From positions 1-50,065 of IMG/VR virus record IMGVR_UViG_3300045988_086121: 50,065 nucleotides of DNA. One strand, given 5' to 3'. This document shows, piece by piece, positions 142-50,065 of the stretch (position 1 is its first letter; each line of letters opens with the position of its first letter). A program made the position numbers and the translations under genes. Source of the DNA: a virus. Below the pieces are notes generated by a model. It saw only the letters and a program-made list of their open reading frames with translations. It was not told the origin of the DNA and did not search any database.

Positions 142-554
142 TCAATGAACTTCAGCTCGTTGCCTTCATTAACGTACAAAATTTGACGCTTACGACCGCG
201 CAATTTTTGCTCGTTATCGCATGAGAAAAACTCCACCCATGAACCATTTGGAAAGGTGCAAATCAATTCAGATTTATTGAACTTGCATTCTCCCCAAATG
301 TTCATATCTTGCATCACTTCTTTAAAATCACGGAGAACTGAACCTTTGAGCGAAGGTAGAGTGGCACGAACTATAGACACACCAGTATTGGCATTCTGCA
401 AACAATACACACAAAGCCATATAACGGTGTTATATGTTTTAGAAGAACGGCTACTCCCTTGCTCGCTAACTGTCGTATAACCGCGAATGTAGGCTTTGTT
501 AATCTCTGAAAAGATTCTTGTTGTCTGTATTTTATTCTTCCTCTTCTTCGTCAT
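1..554 (-). CDS. terL: Terminase large subunit, N-terminal ATPase part; continues across the junction into 48337..50065
   Basis: Absent from the ORF track because it runs off the edge. Manual minus-strand translation from the ATG at 554 gives MTKKRKNKIQTTRIFSEINKAYIRGYTTVSEQGSSRSSKTYNTVIWL...RKRQILYVNEGNELKFIEWQQLQMR with no stops. It has a Walker A-like GSSRSSKT and a Walker B-like LYVNE. It reads in frame into MRTTKFS... of ORF 48337..50049. Confidence 0.85.
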   Translation of the reverse strand, partial: MTKKRKNKIQTTRIFSEINKAYIRGYTTVSEQGSSRSSKTYNTVIWLCVYCLQNANTGVSIVRATLPSLKGSVLRDFKEVMQDMNIWGECKFNKSELICTFPNGSWVEFFSCDNEQKLRGRKRQILYVNEGNELKFIEWQQLQMRTTKFSIIDYNPSFTDDHWLCTLNKEPKTYHFITTYRDNP

Positions 555-978
555 TATCGTCCGTATCAACTTGTTCTCTACTATCAATGATTTCAACCAT
601 TAAAGGCTCGCGAGCAATATCTTTTCCATTTGTAGTAACGTCAAGTTTTTGACCATCGACAAAGCGGTGTATAAGTTCAATCGCACGCAACTTAACCTTT
701 GCATCAACTTGCCCACTGAGCGCAAGATTGATAAGTTGTAGGTTTATCAGTGCGCCATTTGTCGCGTCTGCCGAGTTTATGCCTAACTTTTTTAAAGCTT
801 CACGTGCTTTTTTTTGATTTGCTGCGATAGGTTGATTTATCATAGCATTAAGAATCTCATACATAGCACGTTTTTCACGTCTTATTTTGCCCGAATTTTT
901 TCCACCCTTACTTCCGAGTTCTTTGCGCACTTCGGGAGGTTGCTTATTCATTGGGATAAGATTTTGTTCATTTGCCAT
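532..978 (-). CDS. terS: Putative terminase small subunit
   Basis: 148 aa immediately upstream of TerL, overlapping its start by 23 nt. Basic N-terminus (GSKGGKNSGKIRREKR), helical core and acidic tail. Confidence 0.55.
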   Translation of the reverse strand: MANEQNLIPMNKQPPEVRKELGSKGGKNSGKIRREKRAMYEILNAMINQPIAANQKKAREALKKLGINSADATNGALINLQLINLALSGQVDAKVKLRAIELIHRFVDGQKLDVTTNGKDIAREPLMVEIIDSREQVDTDDNDEEEEE

Positions 979-1198
979 TCCAGTAATCTTTATAATCTAC
1001 TTTTTCTTCTTCTGTTGGAGAATAAACTTCATAAGAATATCCACATTTAGGACAATGATAAAAATCCACAACAGCATTTTCATCATCCATTCTGTCGGTT
1101 GAATTATCCCATATCAAGCCCCCCCACAGCAAAAGCAGCGTTTCGTTTCGTCCATATTTGTTTTGTATTATAATTGTTTGAATAATTGCGCGTTCCAC
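968..1198 (-). CDS. Small zinc-ribbon-like protein (start uncertain)
   Basis: Contains CPKCG. Its stop overlaps the TerS start (atggcaaatga coupling). The internal start at MDDENAVV is plausible. Confidence 0.4.
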   Translation of the reverse strand: MERAIIQTIIIQNKYGRNETLLLLWGGLIWDNSTDRMDDENAVVDFYHCPKCGYSYEVYSPTEEEKVDYKDYWNGK

Positions 1199-1218: not shown

Positions 1219-1641
1219 TTATTGTTTATTTCCAATGTATTCAAAACTTGCTGTAATTCTGTTGTGAGAATTTGATTTGAACGATATTTTGGAAACTTTT
1301 GCATTTTTAGGTTGATGCTTTCTTTTCGGCATTTCTTTCAACACCCATTTTACATCTTTACATCTTGCATGTATCAATGCTGGGTTAGAAGTTGTAGAAA
1401 CATATCTTTTGCCATGTTTGATGAAATATTCAGCAACCCAATTTGAAAACTTATGTCCTATACCAATACCTTGAAAATCTGGTAATACAACAGTTCGATG
1501 TTCTCTGTACACATTCTTAATTTTAAAGTGAGGGAAAGGTAATGCCGCGCAAAATCCGCATAGGTTATCATTAGCAAAGCAAACAAAGACTTTTGCAGCA
1601 ATGTTAAAGCTGTCACTCAGATAATGATATTTGCTAAACAT
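1219..1641 (-). CDS. GNAT N-acetyltransferase domain protein (probably the C-terminal part of an ATPase-GNAT fusion)
   Basis: GNAT motif A in HRTVVLPDFQGIGIGHKFSNWVAEYF. The ORF is N-terminally short for the fold and lies in the -1 frame of the upstream ATPase. Confidence 0.7.
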   Translation of the reverse strand: MFSKYHYLSDSFNIAAKVFVCFANDNLCGFCAALPFPHFKIKNVYREHRTVVLPDFQGIGIGHKFSNWVAEYFIKHGKRYVSTTSNPALIHARCKDVKWVLKEMPKRKHQPKNAKVSKISFKSNSHNRITASFEYIGNKQ

Positions 1642-2321
1642 TTTCCAATATTTCCGCTTGTCTTGTGCTGTTTGTATTTCGTATATTGATAAAGTGATGT
1701 TGGGTCTTTTTTTTTTGAATACAAACTAAATGTCATATCATTCGTGTTGAATATCCAATCTGGCTGCAACCATTCAATCACATCAAAATGGCAAGTAACC
1801 GCAATGAATTGTTTTTTATTGTCTGATTGCCTAATAGCTTTCTGCATAGCTAATGAGCCTATCTTTGCTACATTTCGGTCAACGACAGATGTAAATTCAT
1901 CGAAAACGAATAATCCTTTTTCCGACAAAATAGCTCTTGCTAAATCACATCTCATCTTTTCCCCATTACTCAAAACTGCATAAGGTTTAAGCCATGAAGG
2001 AGGCGAAGAAAAGCCAACACTATTCAATGTTTTACATACATCTTGCATTTTTGCTTCCTTTGGGAAATCATCAAGGAAACATTCCTTGTTATATGCAAAT
2101 CGTTCTATGTAAGCATTTGGGAAAAGAGACTTTGCAATCGTTGTCTTTCCTGTTCCACTGTTACCAACAATCAATCCAATCTGCCAATTTTGTGGCAAAT
2201 CAATGTTACCCTTAAAATGTTCTTTGATTTTGTCGATACTTAAATCGTAAGTACCTCTTACGTACTCGCACCTAAAGCTTTTTGGTGGATTGACTTCTTT
2301 TATAATGTCAAAATTCGGCAT
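1617..2321 (-). CDS. Soluble ABC-type ATPase
   Basis: Walker A GNSGTGKTT, ABC signature-like LSNGEKMR and Walker B LFVFDEF. No transmembrane segments. Confidence 0.75.
   Translation of the reverse strand: MPNFDIIKEVNPPKSFRCEYVRGTYDLSIDKIKEHFKGNIDLPQNWQIGLIVGNSGTGKTTIAKSLFPNAYIERFAYNKECFLDDFPKEAKMQDVCKTLNSVGFSSPPSWLKPYAVLSNGEKMRCDLARAILSEKGLFVFDEFTSVVDRNVAKIGSLAMQKAIRQSDNKKQFIAVTCHFDVIEWLQPDWIFNTNDMTFSLYSKKKDPTSLYQYTKYKQHKTSGNIGKCLANIII
1707..1716 (-). promoter_or_regulatory. A10 slippery run (T10 on + strand): candidate -1 recoding, transcriptional slippage or homopolymer miscall site
   Basis: ATPase frame reads tca aaa aaa aaa gac. The -1 frame from here (RPNITLSIYEIQTAQDKRKYWK) is stop-free up to the GNAT ATG at 1641. 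Confidence 0.5.
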
Positions 2322-2881
2322 GATAATCCTCTTTCTGTTAATTCATTGTATATTTTTTCTTGTTCTTCTTCATTATCGAATGATATTTCTATTTTGTATT
2401 GAGTAGTGAGTTCTGAACTAAAATCTTCAATTTCATCATTTCCCCCTTCATCTTCGTTTTTTATCATATCTTCGTTATCTTCAAGAAAATCGCACTCCAG
2501 TCCGAAGTCCTGCAGCTCTTCAATATCCCATTCATTACCGAGCAAATCCCAATCGTTTTGACCGAATGCGATATTGTCCTTCTGGATATACGCGCGAAGT
2601 TTCTTTGCATCAGTTTTAGGTGGCAACACCTTTACTGGCGCATCTTTGTAGCCAAGTTCCTTCATGGCACGATAACGCATATTGCCAAGGATAACGACAA
2701 GTTCTCCGTTGTTATCGTAGGCTACGAGTTCGCGAAGTTGAAGCATCTCGGGGTCGTCCTCAATGCTCTTTTTTAATGCTTCATAACGCTCATCTTTGAT
2801 GAAGCGAGGGTTCTTTGGCACGTCTTTGATTTGCCCAGTATTGAGGTGCAAATCAGAAAGTTTGATTGTTTTTGCTTGCAT
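2300..2881 (-). CDS. ParB/Srx-like N-terminal domain protein
   Basis: IKLSDLHLNTGQI..NPRFI..YEALKKSIEDDPEMLQLRELVAY...LGNMRYRAMKELG resembles the ParB N-terminal nuclease/CTPase-like domain. Acidic C-terminus. Overlaps the ATPase start by 22 nt. Confidence 0.65.
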   Translation of the reverse strand: MQAKTIKLSDLHLNTGQIKDVPKNPRFIKDERYEALKKSIEDDPEMLQLRELVAYDNNGELVVILGNMRYRAMKELGYKDAPVKVLPPKTDAKKLRAYIQKDNIAFGQNDWDLLGNEWDIEELQDFGLECDFLEDNEDMIKNEDEGGNDEIEDFSSELTTQYKIEISFDNEEEQEKIYNELTERGLSCRILTL

Positions 2882-2970: not shown

Positions 2971-3348
2971 TTATACTTCTTTTATTGCAATTCCGTGCAC
3001 GAAGAGCAATAATTTGCGTTTTATTATGTAAGTAGCATTTGAAAGGGTTATCGCAGATTTTACATCCTCAACAACCTGCTTTCCGTCTTGAATGTAGGTA
3101 AAGTCAGCGACATAATTGCAAGCCCGTTCAACGACCTTTCCTTTTTCGTTCCGCTGCGGTGGGATGAGTTCAAAGCTAACTTGTCGCTTTAAATTCTTTA
3201 TTTTACCGCGTTTTTGCAAGTCAAGTAAGTAAATATACCGCTTCCACTCTTTAATGCTGTCAAATCGCCCGAAATTGTTTTTAATCGCTGTGTTTCTGTA
3301 TTTGTTCTCTCGCTTCATTCTTGCTATCATTAGTTTAATATTTGCCAT
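2971..3348 (-). CDS. DUF1064-like (PD-(D/E)xK family) protein
   Basis: FDSIKEWKRYIYLLDLQKRGKIKNLKRQVSFEL...YVADFTYIQDGKQVVEDVKS matches the DUF1064 pattern recalled from Firmicutes phage replication/recombination modules. Confidence 0.6.
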   Translation of the reverse strand: MANIKLMIARMKRENKYRNTAIKNNFGRFDSIKEWKRYIYLLDLQKRGKIKNLKRQVSFELIPPQRNEKGKVVERACNYVADFTYIQDGKQVVEDVKSAITLSNATYIIKRKLLLFVHGIAIKEV

Positions 3349-3410
3349 AACAAAGTTATTTAATTGTGGCGACTTTACCTTGTTTGAAGTTTTTTCTGTA
3401 AAACTATTTT

Positions 3411-45069: not shown

Positions 45070-45156
45070 TACCTTTGCAATGGGGATTCCGTAGCTAATG
45101 ACTACCGATTCCTCGACAGCGGGGGTCAGCAATTATTGCTGACCATCCGTTTTTTT
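45070..45156 (+). ncRNA. Candidate short plus-strand sRNA: TACCTTTG promoter box, ~45-nt body, perfect hairpin and T7 run; 3' end antisense to the MuF gene stop
   Basis: TACCTTTGCAATGG at 45070. Hairpin GGTCAGCAA-TTA-TTGCTGACC at 45124..45144 (the loop is the MuF stop codon). TTTTTTT at 45150..45156. Confidence 0.35.
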
Positions 45157-46878
45157 GAACAATAGTTTTATTTCGCCATCTTGATATCGAAGCCAAATTT
45201 CTTCTATATCTTCACCATTATTTATTCGATTATAAAGTCCTCTCTTCATAAAACGTTCAGTTAAGTTTGGTTTATCTATCACCAAACGATTGCTTTGTAA
45301 GAGACCATCTTTAATCATATTCCTAAATGCGTTTTTGGGATTGTTCGATATAAATCCTTCATGCTCATACCACTCTCCATCAACGTTCAAATCTGGGCAT
45401 TTACCCTCATATTTAGTGCCGATTAAAGATTTATAATACTTTGAATACTCAAATTCAGGAGGACGCTTCATTTTGGGGGTAAGAATCACTCTTGAACCAT
45501 TCTTTGCAAAATGTTCTGCCACTTGTATTAGTTTATTAAAATCATTGTCAGAATGATTTACAAATTTAGAAATGGCTATAACCCCATCACCCTTGCGATA
45601 TGTAATCTCATCAAGGTTTTTCCAATATCGTTCAAACCAAGCATTTTTTATAGTTCTTATTTGCTTATCAGTTCTCGCTTCATGACGAGCCTTTGCAGCT
45701 GCAAGTATTTTCTCACGGCTTGACATTGATTCTGTCCCTTGCTTCTCCTCCCATCCGAGCAAATTACCTACGACACGTTCGTTATCCTTCACGAAGTAAG
45801 GCAATTTCCCTTTTTCACGCGCCAAGTCCAATTTCTTAGCATTGCGCTCGCACCATTTAGAGAACTTTTCAGGCACGTTTTGTACAAGGTTGGGGGATTT
45901 GTAAGCCTTGTATTCTTTTTCGGGCAGAGAGCGCAAATATTTCCATTCTTCGCTATCTCTATCAATTAGAATTGACGAAGCAGAACACATGCAACGTGGA
46001 TGCCATCCGCGCCACATGAAATCTTTCGGGTAATCGCCAGCAAGCTCATCGCATATATCCTCCTTTGGATGATTGCCCGATAAGCGAATACGTATACCAA
46101 GCACAAACGGCTCACTACTCCACCTTTCACAATTAGCGAAGTTGTAAGCCATGTTTGTTTCGGTAATGGTTAGGCGCAAGGCATTTTGACGCGCAGAGCG
46201 ATAAACCCCAGTACCAACTTTAGCTAAGTCCTCTTTTACGAAATGCACATTCCCTTCTTCGTCCACAACTCGCCTACGCCATTCTATCACATCTTTCTTC
46301 GTGCCATCTGACATAGCCTTCTTGACATGATAGCGTCTGTACATCATATCAGGGTTGTTCAAATGCTGACGTATCTTGCGACCAAGGCTTTCAGCCGATT
46401 CTCCCTTTTTAATGCCATTCTCTATAGCATTAGACATTGCAAGTTCAAACTCAGCTTTTGTCTGTTGTGTGTAATTCCAAACTCTATCAGACAGATTCAG
46501 TCCGTCTGTTCTATCCCTTCTGCTACGTATAAACGCATTAGCAGTCTTATTCCTCCATTCATCAACGGCTTCGCCCTGCATACGTGTATATGCTTCAAAA
46601 GCCTTTTGTTGAGTTATTGTTGAAAGCATAACTGCACGCGTTATCCCTTGCTGAATAAGGGATTGTAACGCTTGCTTATAAGAATCAAGTATAGCTTGCA
46701 CCCTTTCCTTTTCGGTGGGGGTGCAAGCATTTGAAATCTTATAAAGTTCTTCTGGTGTAACTCGTTCCGTTGAAACAATAGTTGCCTTCGTTAACTCATC
46801 TATAACATGGTTGTACAACTTATTGAAATCAGACGAAACGTGCAGAAGTAATTTTATTATGTTCTTTTGAATTGACAT
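45133..46878 (-). CDS. MuF/SPP1 gp7-like head morphogenesis protein with ~280-aa C-terminal extension
   Basis: MuF core ...LRLTITETNMAYNFAN...WRGWHPRCMCS (HPxCxC) ends near aa 300. The extension ends in a domain with VILTPKM...KCPDLNVDGEWYEHEGF. Confidence 0.75.
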   Translation of the reverse strand: MSIQKNIIKLLLHVSSDFNKLYNHVIDELTKATIVSTERVTPEELYKISNACTPTEKERVQAILDSYKQALQSLIQQGITRAVMLSTITQQKAFEAYTRMQGEAVDEWRNKTANAFIRSRRDRTDGLNLSDRVWNYTQQTKAEFELAMSNAIENGIKKGESAESLGRKIRQHLNNPDMMYRRYHVKKAMSDGTKKDVIEWRRRVVDEEGNVHFVKEDLAKVGTGVYRSARQNALRLTITETNMAYNFANCERWSSEPFVLGIRIRLSGNHPKEDICDELAGDYPKDFMWRGWHPRCMCSASSILIDRDSEEWKYLRSLPEKEYKAYKSPNLVQNVPEKFSKWCERNAKKLDLAREKGKLPYFVKDNERVVGNLLGWEEKQGTESMSSREKILAAAKARHEARTDKQIRTIKNAWFERYWKNLDEITYRKGDGVIAISKFVNHSDNDFNKLIQVAEHFAKNGSRVILTPKMKRPPEFEYSKYYKSLIGTKYEGKCPDLNVDGEWYEHEGFISNNPKNAFRNMIKDGLLQSNRLVIDKPNLTERFMKRGLYNRINNGEDIEEIWLRYQDGEIKLLFKKTDGQQ

Positions 46879-48336: not shown

Positions 48337-50065
48337 TTACATTAAATCGATAAATTCGTCAGCGTCAAGTCCGTTGCTGTTCTGACCTAATAACTCGTCA
48401 AGAACAACATAGCGTATGCCGTCCATGCAATTATGTACAAGGATGCCATTTGCGTAGTATTCATGAACATCTTCAACTTCTATATCATAGACTTTTTGAA
48501 TGTTTGCGTCTTGCACATGAATACTTTCCAGCACAAATTCTTGAACAGCATTTACTTCTTGAATATTTGTTGATAGTGAAAGTTTTTCCACACCAAATGC
48601 AGACGCGTTCTTCATCATCAACGTGCAATTCTCGTCTGTACTTTGACTTGCAATTATTAGAGCAGAACTTCGCATCTCCTTTCTTTGACTTAAACGATGT
48701 GCCACACTGGATGCAGACGAGGTCTTTAGGCTGAACAAGTTGCGCAATAATCCTTGCATGAATTGAATGCCATTTACGACCAATGTCCGAACGATGCCAC
48801 TTGTTCGCGTAAATGCGAGCATTATCCATGTTTTTACGAGCCTTAGCAAGATATTCTTCATCTTGACAATGTATGCAAGCATGATTTGAAAGATGGTCAT
48901 GTCCGTTAAGCATTTCAAGATTTGATATTTCGTTGTTGTGTGGGTTGTTATCTTTGTGGTGTATGTGATACCCTTTGGGGATTGCGCCATTGTAGTATTC
49001 CCATACAACTCTGTGTAAGCGTTTCGTTCCTCTGGAATAGTATTTTTCGCCCTTGTATAATTTGTAGTCTTTGCCGTTAAATCGTTGTACGTATACAACG
49101 TATCCATCTGAGTTAATTCTTGTACTTGTTTCCATCCTTTTTTGGTTTTGATTCGATGATTCGGTGTACAAATGAGTGTATACACATCTCCTGCTACCGA
49201 TGTTATTGTATATTTGTTTACTTGTTTATTCCCGTTTGCGAAGACCTTTTTCACTCTCCTATATCCTTTCGATGTTAGGACGTATTCACCAACTTGCATT
49301 TGGCTTATCCGTTTTAAACCACATTTAGTAAGAATAAGAGTACTCCCGACAAAGCAGTGATTATAGGCATCGATAGGCTCATTTAACCACTTGCCCTCTT
49401 TGTTCTGTCGGTATGTGTAATTACGGAACTCTTTCTGCACGTTTATACTTTTCCTCGTTACATATATCTTCATTTCCTGCATCTTGTTAATACCAGCCAT
49501 AATTGAACCAGAGAATTTCCGCACGGGGTGTATATCAAGTCCAGCGTTGGCAATCTCATCAATTAGGCGAGGGTCTGCGCTCTCTGAGATAATCTCTACG
49601 TTTTCACCGCATTCTTTATTTGCATCCTTCAGTACGCGTATTATGTCAGCAGCAAGCATGTGCGTCTGGTAGCATACTTCGTCAATCCACAGTGCACAAT
49701 CATTGATGTACACATCCACGATGGCAGTTGGGTCGTTGGTATAACCGAAGTCTATACCTCTGTAGTGATGTTTCTTGTGCCAACGTGGTATCTCGTCTAT
49801 TACCTCTACATTCTCAAATATCAAGCCTTCTACCATTGCTTGCAGCCCAAGACCATAAATGCGCCACAGCGAAGTATTCTTGTATTTAAGGCTTTCGATT
49901 TCATCAATAACCTTTTGTTCCAAGAATGGATTATCTCTGTAAGTTGTGATAAAATGATAAGTCTTAGGCTCTTTATTCAGTGTGCATAGCCAGTGGTCAT
50001 CCGTAAATGAGGGGTTGTAGTCAATGATAGAGAATTTAGTGGTACGCATCTGTAGCTGCTGCCAT
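48337..50065 (-). CDS. terL: Terminase large subunit, C-terminal part (nuclease domain) interrupted by an intein
   Basis: The frame continues upstream of the listed Met (..WQQLQMRTTKFS..) to the window edge and wraps to 142..554. Total 713 aa, or 404 aa after intein removal. Exteins ...EPIDAYNH / CMDGIRYVVLDE. Confidence 0.85.
   Translation of the reverse strand, partial: WQQLQMRTTKFSIIDYNPSFTDDHWLCTLNKEPKTYHFITTYRDNPFLEQKVIDEIESLKYKNTSLWRIYGLGLQAMVEGLIFENVEVIDEIPRWHKKHHYRGIDFGYTNDPTAIVDVYINDCALWIDEVCYQTHMLAADIIRVLKDANKECGENVEIISESADPRLIDEIANAGLDIHPVRKFSGSIMAGINKMQEMKIYVTRKSINVQKEFRNYTYRQNKEGKWLNEPIDAYNHCFVGSTLILTKCGLKRISQMQVGEYVLTSKGYRRVKKVFANGNKQVNKYTITSVAGDVYTLICTPNHRIKTKKGWKQVQELTQMDTLYTYNDLTAKTTNYTRAKNTIPEERNAYTELYGNTTMAQSPKGITYTTKITTHTTTKYQILKCLTDMTIFQIMLAYIVKMKNILLRLVKTWIMLAFTRTSGIVRTLVVNGIQFMQGLLRNLFSLKTSSASSVAHRLSQRKEMRSSALIIASQSTDENCTLMMKNASAFGVEKLSLSTNIQEVNAVQEFVLESIHVQDANIQKVYDIEVEDVHEYYANGILVHNCMDGIRYVVLDELLGQNSNGLDADEFIDLM
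48430..49356 (-). mobile_element. Class-1 Hint intein (309 aa) in TerL
   Basis: Block A CFVGSTLILT. Block B TPNH followed by KKGWKQVQELTQMDTL. Blocks F/G KVYDIEVEDVHEYYANGILVHN. The +1 residue is Cys. Confidence 0.8.
48485..49171 (-). CDS. HNH homing endonuclease encoded in an alternative frame inside the intein
   Basis: INSDGYVVYV...RLHRVVWEYYNGAIPKGYHIHHKDNNPHNNEISNLEMLNGHDH, plus two repeats of C-x2-CG..F...K(F/C)CS..C. The frame is offset by 2 nt from the TerL frame. Confidence 0.75.
   Translation of the reverse strand: MYTESSNQNQKRMETSTRINSDGYVVYVQRFNGKDYKLYKGEKYYSRGTKRLHRVVWEYYNGAIPKGYHIHHKDNNPHNNEISNLEMLNGHDHLSNHACIHCQDEEYLAKARKNMDNARIYANKWHRSDIGRKWHSIHARIIAQLVQPKDLVCIQCGTSFKSKKGDAKFCSNNCKSKYRRELHVDDEERVCIWCGKTFTINKYSRSKCCSRICAGKYSCARRKHSKSL
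49925..50065. repeat. Terminal overlap, second copy (identical to 1..141)
   Basis: See 1..141. Confidence 0.95.

Follow-up and report, generated by a model that had tools for sequence, protein, structure and literature searches.

Locus organisation and reading frames

The DNA analysed, referred to here as the window, is the 50,065-nucleotide (nt) virus record IMGVR_UViG_3300045988_086121 (positions 1 to 50,065), in which a minus-strand cassette at 1219 to 2881 encodes a ParB-like protein, an ABC-type ATPase and a GNAT acetyltransferase. The ATPase and the GNAT are read in different frames that meet at a run of ten A residues (A10), the candidate slip site with which this analysis is concerned. 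The two open reading frames (ORFs), together with the ParB-like ORF, are a conserved two-gene phage cassette made up of a ParB-like protein and one ABC-ATPase-GNAT polypeptide. The features of the cassette are as follows.

2881..2300, minus strand: ParB/Srx-like N-terminal-domain protein of 193 amino acids with an acidic C-terminal half (ORF and PHROG matches)
2321..1617, minus strand: ATPase ORF of 234 amino acids (ORF call)
2300..2321, minus strand: 22 nt shared by the 3' end of the ParB-like gene and the 5' end of the ATPase gene
1717..2321, minus strand: ABC-type ATPase domain in frame 0, residues 1-202, as far as the candidate slip site
1717..1752, minus strand: 36 nt directly 5' of the run, the site of a hairpin in in-frame relatives
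1707..1716, minus strand: A10 run, candidate slip site (T10 on the plus strand)
1617..1706, minus strand: ATPase-only tail in frame 0, 29 codons, DPTSLYQ...ANIII*
1219..1706, minus strand: GNAT domain in the -1 frame, from just past the run to the stop
1642..1706, minus strand: strand beta1 and helix alpha1 of the GNAT, 5' of the ATG
1219..1641, minus strand: mechanically called stand-alone GNAT ORF of 140 amino acids, in the -1 frame of the ATPase

The run is exactly 10 nt long and is the longest homopolymer of the 50-kb window. It is read as TCA AAA AAA AAA GAC in frame 0 and as TTC AAA AAA AAA AGA CCC in the -1 frame, which opens three codons ahead of the run (..*FVFKKKRPNITL..) and continues through the ATG at 1641 to a stop at 1219. 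A first-pass annotation, made from the sequence alone, had reported an A10 run at 1707..1716 followed by a stop-free -1 frame as far as the GNAT ATG, and this was confirmed. That annotation had also proposed an ATPase-GNAT fusion of about 375 amino acids by slippage; one added A does join the frames, but the product has 367 amino acids, or 366 where two A's are removed. The junction peptide predicted for the fusion is ...LYSKKKRPNITL... Relative to the GNAT, the ATPase-only product has its tail in the +1 frame, and its stop is a by-product, since it arises from the conserved YHYL codons. A heptamer of the X_XXY_YYZ form, A_AAA_AAA, stands in phase with the upstream frame (TC A_AAA_AAA AAA GAC), and the A10 at the frame junction lies above the threshold of at least 9 A or T taken for transcriptional slippage (PMC5009743).

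ATPase and GNAT domains and their fusion in homologues

The ATPase scored 36.2 bits against the Pfam profile ABC_tran (cut-off 25) and the GNAT 31.5 bits against Acetyltransf_1 (cut-off 20.7), so that the lack of ABC or GNAT profile matches, which the first-pass annotation had named as a ground for doubt, was not encountered. The motifs that it had read from the translations (GNSGTGKTT, LSNGEKMR, LFVFDEF and VVLPDFQGIGIG) are all present. Walker A (GNSGTGKT), the signature (LSNGE), Walker B (FVFDE) and the H-loop (H178) are invariant in 25 aligned homologues, in which the catalytic motifs of both the ATPase and the GNAT are conserved without exception, and the acyl-CoA motif QGIGIG, of the Q/R-x-x-G-x-G/A type, was found in the GNAT. 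By profile and motifs the ATPase is a member of the ABC-type ATPase superfamily, and by profile, motif and fold the GNAT domain is a member of the GNAT acetyltransferase superfamily. No permease was found fused or adjacent to the ATPase, the neighbours being the ParB-like gene, the GNAT and the packaging genes, so that 'ABC transporter' and 'siderophore transporter', as used in databases, are misnomers.

The conceptual fusion matched PHROG 11143 (357 positions) end to end over residues 14-366 (E 1.8e-100). In an AlphaFold model of the fusion (mean predicted local distance difference test score 79.5) an ABC nucleotide-binding domain is followed by a GNAT fold, with strand beta1 (211-216) and helix alpha1 (219-229) encoded between the run and the ATG, and the GNAT fold is complete only with residues 206-227, which lie 5' of the ATG. 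The top Foldseek matches of the model were ABC nucleotide-binding domains, GNAT structures were matched separately, and no solved structure combining an ABC domain with a GNAT was among the Foldseek matches. A search of a large protein collection gave fusion homologues in at least 7,994 protein clusters. Nearly all of the best 120 homologues are 348-381 amino acids long (one has 396), with both domains and 89-100% query coverage, and the ATPase-GNAT fusion is the family norm. The PHROG match, the homologue lengths and the modelled beta1 and alpha1 agree with the earlier view that the GNAT ORF as called is N-terminally truncated and whole only as part of a fusion. Homologues that were always separate and had no A-run had been put forward as a possible refutation; the opposite was found, in that the homologues are fused and most of the close ones carry the run.

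The overlap of the ATG at 1641 with the end of the ATPase ORF is compatible with the production of two separate proteins, a 140-amino-acid GNAT subunit being started at this ATG by coupling to ATPase termination 24 nt downstream. This is scarcely credible given the remaining evidence. The methionine is a conserved internal residue of the fused homologues, within the family motif W-x-M-F-x-K-Y-H-Y-L, and its codon is replaced by CTG in one relative (L021/L174), which also disposes of the earlier reading of this ATG as the GNAT start. A 140-residue product would lack beta1 and alpha1, the codons 5' of the ATG evolve as coding sequence of the -1 frame, and the Streptococcus phages have no start codon near the domain boundary. 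In a search of the window for an internal promoter or terminator that could serve a separate GNAT transcript, counts were no higher than in shuffled sequence.

Homologues were also seen in contigs binned to archaeal genomes (L101, L103, L104, L110 and L158), with three copies in one Methanoregulaceae chromosome (L101, L103 and L104). In a Treponema locus (L102) the full gene is followed by a further GNAT-like copy in a different frame. Two otherwise full-length homologues have single in-frame stops away from the linker (L092, ~928-932; L095, ~3396-3400), which may be errors, pseudogenes or recoded stops.

Conservation of the run in related viral contigs

Eighty related viral contigs with 51-97% protein identity were compared at the linker. 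An exact A10 run is present at the homologous position in 79 of the 80, and 74 of the 80 carry it in frame as CAA AAA AAA AAT (Q-K-K-N), usually followed by AGA CC. The run length is A10 in all 74 in-frame relatives, and no synonymous variant occurs among them. Codon usage was compared in 26 representatives with less than 80% nucleotide identity to each other (mean 65%). In the remainder of these genes AAA accounts for 80% of its codon family, CAA for 77% and AAT for 73%, from which the all-A spelling is expected with a probability of 0.36 per lineage and of about 2e-12 jointly over the 26, lineages being treated as independent. Judged by this comparison, the run is conserved at the nucleotide level beyond the need of the protein, a property sought in a programmed slippage site.

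An 11th A leads to an immediate stop (QKKK*) in 67 of the 74 in-frame loci. With nine A's, the in-frame relatives are read for 29-33 codons up to a stop formed from the YHYL codons, in the same frame as the ATPase tail of the window. The QKKK* stop was considered as an independent sign of design and rejected, as it follows automatically from AAT with AGA or AAA. In one otherwise in-frame contig (L034, 1080-1140) a TAA stands two codons ahead of the A10 (..FV*AQKKNRP..); the ATPase of this contig would end at the domain boundary, and its GNAT would lack a start codon.

Hairpin upstream of the run

In the in-frame relatives, the 36 nt that precede the run contain an 8-bp hairpin that ends one base (C) ahead of it, with a mean energy of -8.1 kcal/mol and a mean z score of -2.3 over 56 distinct sequences. 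Across 28 ungapped sequences 94.6% of the cells of the 8-bp helix are paired, against 30-72% in slid controls, and compensatory two-sided changes were found in five of the eight pairs (23 cells); none of 500 shuffles reached the observed values. Loci with longer linkers have other stem sequences at the same position. The hairpin is a feature of in-frame A-run loci and is missing from out-of-frame A-run loci (z ~0). It is degenerate in the window (-1.8 kcal/mol, z = +0.3), and in the lineage of the window the energies are -1.8 to -3.6 kcal/mol with z ~0. A downstream stimulator of frameshifting was sought in the 70 nt after the run, which fold no better than shuffled sequences (mean z -0.3 over 29 loci; +1.2 in the window). 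The hairpin was counted as stimulatory, and not as required for long runs.

Run length and selection in the lineage of the window

A DNA pattern search gave 20 further sequences from human-gut assemblies which, with the window, form a lineage of 21 sequences (20 distinct). Run lengths in this lineage are A10 in 17 sequences, A9 in two, A11 in one (in frame) and A8 in one (in frame, as part of a 5-nt deletion), and in the A10 members the GNAT is out of frame with the run kept. A Prevotellaceae genome bin with 91% identity has A9; this match suggests the host, and the lineage of the window probably consists of Prevotellaceae phages.

Synonymous and non-synonymous substitutions were counted in ten full-length A10 sequences, which are ~95% identical. 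For the ATPase upstream of the run the counts were 41 synonymous to 16 non-synonymous in frame 0 and 7 to 51 in frame -1; between the run and the frame-0 stop they were 1 to 7 and 4 to 3, respectively, and for the GNAT downstream of the frame-0 stop 7 to 28 and 23 to 9. None of the ten sequences has a stop in the GNAT frame. On these counts the GNAT is under purifying selection.

The selection counts bear on the suggestion that the frameshift is merely tolerated on the way to gene loss, with the GNAT dispensable in this lineage and the ATPase alone of importance. The decay of the upstream hairpin fits such a course, as do further lesions in relatives, namely a 2-nt deletion (L017/L178) and a +1 insertion (L181). 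It is nevertheless very unlikely, given the 23 synonymous to 9 non-synonymous changes of the GNAT and its freedom from stops, the restoration of the frame in two relatives (by A11 and by the 5-nt deletion) and the persistence of the same arrangement in several other lineages. The deletion in L017/L178 lies inside the GNAT (reference position 947). The insertion in L181, ~65 nt 3' of the run, restores one long ORF in which beta1 and alpha1 are read in the wrong frame.

A sequencing or assembly artefact, in which a true A11 run of an ordinary in-frame fusion has been under-called, can be dismissed almost entirely, as can the homopolymer miscall that the first-pass annotation had listed among its options. 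Homopolymers of 10-11 nt are indeed error-prone, and one relative (L180) does have A11. Yet A10 was found in 17 contigs (17 of the 21 sequences) that come from several independent human-gut assemblies and differ from each other by ~5% in sequence. The 74 in-frame A10 relatives, whose assemblies are comparable, never deviate to A9 or A11, and out-of-frame A9 or A10 runs recur in several other lineages.

The variation in run length could instead reflect phase variation at the DNA level, replication slippage altering the tract so that virions would differ in having the fusion on (A11, A8) or off (A10, A9). Slipped-strand events are classically associated with poly-A tracts (PMC3711429), and close relatives with A9 (L094, L189 and L192), A10 (17 sequences) and A11 (L180, in frame) provide the tract-length polymorphism (A9, A10, A11) expected of such switching. 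This explanation is given some weight but is considered unlikely, as the 'off' length dominates 17 to 1 while the GNAT is under purifying selection, and A10 is kept in 74 of 74 in-frame relatives, which also retain a hairpin that has no role in replication slippage. Because the run of the in-frame relatives never varies, the tract is not intrinsically unstable in assemblies. DNA-level phase variation may act alongside RNA-level slippage.

Frame splits in other lineages

The GNAT lies in the -1 frame with an A-run in genome bins of Alistipes (A10), Gilliamella (A9), Coxiellaceae (A10) and Pseudomonadota (A9), in two of which -1-frame stops stand directly 5' of the run. Other copies have a heptamer in phase at the linker: G_GGA_AAG in the Spirosoma and Nibrella copies, which have no A-run, A_AAA_AAG in Enterococcus phage 9184 and A_AAG_GGC in an Oenococcus phage. 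In a Streptococcus/Lactococcus clade the GNAT is again in the -1 frame, the vicinity of the domain boundary offers no usable start codon, and the motif GTTTTTC is invariant in 13 of 13 distinct sequences. A C5 run was considered as the slip site of the Streptococcus phages and rejected, as it is not conserved and the invariant element is GTTTTTC. The wider invariant sequence of these copies (L001, L002, L004 and L200-L216) is CA(A/G)GTTTTTC(A/G)A, which is unlike a classical heptamer, and in annotations these copies appear as an 'ABC transporter' and a short hypothetical protein. In a neighbour-joining tree the out-of-frame A-run loci are scattered among in-frame loci, which suggests at least four origins of the split. 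No slippery site is present in the distant members of the family (from Planctomycetota, Actinobacteria phages, and Leptospira and Pasteurella phages), all of them fused.

Proposed mechanism and comparison with known recoding systems

Our preferred reading, which we hold to be probable though well short of firm, is that programmed slippage at the run would yield both the ATPase alone and the ATPase-GNAT fusion. In the in-frame relatives the unslipped product would be the fusion, and one added A would give the ATPase alone. In the lineage of the window the unslipped product would be the ATPase alone with its 29-residue tail, and the 367-residue ATPase-GNAT would be made only with one added A. 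The two forms would share the ATPase and would probably assemble as ABC dimers. The mechanism would most likely be slippage by the RNA polymerase of the host at the A10/T10 tract, with a -1 ribosomal shift on A_AAA_AAA as a possible alternative in the window. For the family as a whole, polymerase slippage would be favoured in A-run lineages and a ribosomal -1 shift in heptamer lineages; the former preference is held because the heptamer needs only seven A's and explains neither all ten of them nor the upstream hairpin. The element of the relatives, a hairpin followed by one base and a tract as long as the RNA-DNA hybrid, has the geometry of an intrinsic terminator with A's replacing U's.

In vivo, a run of nine A or T causes efficient slippage of bacterial RNA polymerase, and Thermus dnaX makes tau and gamma by polymerase slippage (PMC5009743). 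In Thermus thermophilus dnaX the slippage occurs on A9, and the E. coli gene uses a -1 frameshift on A_AAA_AAG (PMC5009743, PMC3711429). The present gene resembles dnaX in that one gene would give a full-length and a C-terminally truncated protein with a shared ATPase, with an A-run or heptamer at the domain boundary, in having a stop soon after the slip site in the alternative frame (here QKKK*, 67/74), and in the occurrence of in-frame and two-ORF configurations in different lineages. It differs in being a phage gene for an ABC ATPase and a GNAT, of an unrelated family and known from sequence alone, and in having A10, preceded in relatives by a hairpin.

In an IS630 element, slippage is stimulated by a nascent hairpin that adjoins the slip motif on its 5' side (PMC5009743). 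The likeness to this Roseiflexus IS630 transposase (Penno et al. 2015, reviewed in PMC5009743) lies in the hairpin directly 5' of the run and in the terminator geometry, with a tract of about the length of the RNA-DNA hybrid (in the relatives, an 8-bp hairpin, C and A10). The motif of the transposase is T5C5 and its slippage deletes a base, whereas the tract here is A10 and the hairpin has been lost in the lineage of the window. The tail-assembly chaperone G/GT of phage lambda offers a further parallel, being a conserved phage -1 frameshift (on G_GGA_AAG) that adds a second domain at a set ratio, and the same G_GGA_AAG stands in phase in the Spirosoma and Nibrella prophage copies of the ATPase-GNAT gene; the gene and its function are different, however, and the site in the window is a homopolymer.

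Several points weigh against programmed slippage. The hairpin, the best mechanistic argument, applies to relatives and not to the genome of the window, as the lineage of the latter lacks it. Two products are not essential to the family, since distant members have no slippery site. The run length is polymorphic (A9/A10/A11) in the lineage of the window, and switching at the DNA level would yield the same pattern. The lineages entering the codon-usage calculation are not fully independent, which makes the joint value an approximation, few substitutions enter the selection counts for the 90-nt overlap, and the AAT-AGA codons may in themselves account for the immediate alternative-frame stop in relatives. 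We infer the occurrence of slippage, its mechanism and the ratio of its products alike from the anatomy of the locus, the base-level conservation of the run, the covariation in the hairpin, the selection on both parts and the recurrent split, which are themselves observed.

To our knowledge, few bacterial or phage genes with programmed slippage are known beyond insertion sequences, tail chaperones and dnaX, and we know of hairpin-stimulated polymerase slippage essentially from one insertion sequence element. A search of full-text literature found no description of the ATPase-GNAT family or of its recoding, though a prior mention may exist. The class of mechanism is already known; what appears to be new is the gene family itself, its conserved hairpin-plus-A10 element and the occurrence of both frame configurations side by side. 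This very large family combines a base-conserved run, a covarying hairpin, both frame configurations and independent heptamer replacements, and offers natural variants with which the influence of run length, hairpin and frame on the ratio of the two forms could be tested. In many phages annotation splits and mislabels the gene as 'ABC transporter' and 'hypothetical protein'.

ParB-like partner and possible function

The ParB/Srx-like label of the first-pass annotation stood in part. The ParB-like ORF matched phrog_17622 (1.7e-47) and PHROG families 620, 940 and 498 (ParB-like, nuclease and methyltransferase-N-terminal; 1e-12 to 1e-15), and it is on account of these family matches that it is called ParB-like, but its score against Pfam ParB_N was below the cut-off (19.3 versus 26.3 bits) and its best match among solved structures had E 0.37-0.44. 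A ParB-like ORF immediately precedes the ATPase-GNAT gene in 127 of 151 related loci. The two genes overlap by 21-22 nt in 108 loci, among them those of Streptococcus, Lactococcus and Oenococcus phages; the overlap suggests that the ParB-like and ATPase genes are translationally coupled. In related phage loci the cassette often stands ahead of the terminase. In Thomasclavelia phage TR-TP1 (L171) and Enterococcus phage 9184 (L172) the ATPase/GNAT pair is found amid DNA polymerase, primase and exonuclease genes, with no ParB-like neighbour. In Streptococcus phages an ASCH-domain gene follows directly after the GNAT (L001, 4131-4508; L004, 4117-4485), of which no counterpart was recognised in the window.

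TmcA and NAT10 are ATP-dependent RNA cytidine acetyltransferases in which an NTPase is joined to a GNAT domain. The comparison with these enzymes in the first-pass annotation is of use as an analogy for ATP-coupled acetyl transfer to nucleic acid, both having an NTPase and a GNAT, but does not extend to family membership, as the ATPase here is of the ABC type and not a RecD-like helicase. Membership was rejected because the defining Pfam domains were not detected; searches for the RecD-like helicase, DUF1726, GNAT_acetyltr_2 and the tRNA-binding domain gave no match at E <= 1. PADLOC defence-system profiles gave only weak generic ATPase matches.

A phage ParB-like protein is needed for the activity of a thymine dioxygenase on double-stranded DNA (PMC13229309), and in the Dnd system the ParB-family protein DndB works with the ABC ATPase DndD (PMC10853773). 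The present cassette shares with the former a short ParB-like gene beside a modification enzyme, often near the terminase, and with the latter the combination of a ParB-family protein and an ABC ATPase; it differs in that its enzyme is a GNAT and not a dioxygenase or a sulfur-transfer system. The ParB-like protein and ATPase-GNAT beside the terminase are a candidate source of a new activity, either nucleic-acid modification or anti-defence. By analogy, and only tentatively, the cassette might carry out ATP-dependent acyl modification of DNA or RNA before packaging, with help from the ParB-like partner. The fullest form of this proposal, to which we would attach a rather low probability, is that a ParB-like activator and an ABC-ATPase-GNAT acylate phage DNA or host nucleic acid before packaging, the ratio of subunits being set by polymerase slippage at the hairpin-plus-A10 element. 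If true, it would add a novel type of nucleic-acid modification system, and would also be the first case outside insertion sequences of a large natural family with transcriptional slippage stimulated by a hairpin.

Neighbouring genes and genome context

Bases 1-141 of the window are an exact direct repeat of 49925-50065 (141 nt). The window is a circularly closed genome of ~49.9 kb, and its gene order runs on across the ends. The cassette therefore lies directly upstream of the packaging genes, and the first-pass description of three overlapping minus-strand genes in this position is upheld by the ORF coordinates and the circular genome. The features that follow the cassette are listed below.

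968..1198, minus strand: small Cys-pair (zinc-ribbon-like) ORF between the GNAT and the packaging genes
532..978, minus strand: phrog_2412 protein, placed where a small terminase subunit would be expected (PHROG match)
48337..50049, minus strand: large terminase subunit, after the cassette across the circular junction

The ORF at 968..1198 had no family match in Pfam and PHROG profile searches. From its position, the product of 532..978 is presumably the small terminase subunit. The portal gene also comes after the cassette, past the circular junction. A megablast search returned no near-identical annotated phage, and an Rfam search gave no family match anywhere in the window. On the upstream side, the ParB-like gene is adjoined by a gene for a DUF1064 protein (2971-3348, minus strand), annotated in PHROG as a Holliday junction resolvase. 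A head-morphogenesis-like protein is encoded at 45133-46878 (minus strand) and also matches a PHROG family annotated as Bxa ADP-ribosyl transferase (1.4e-65).

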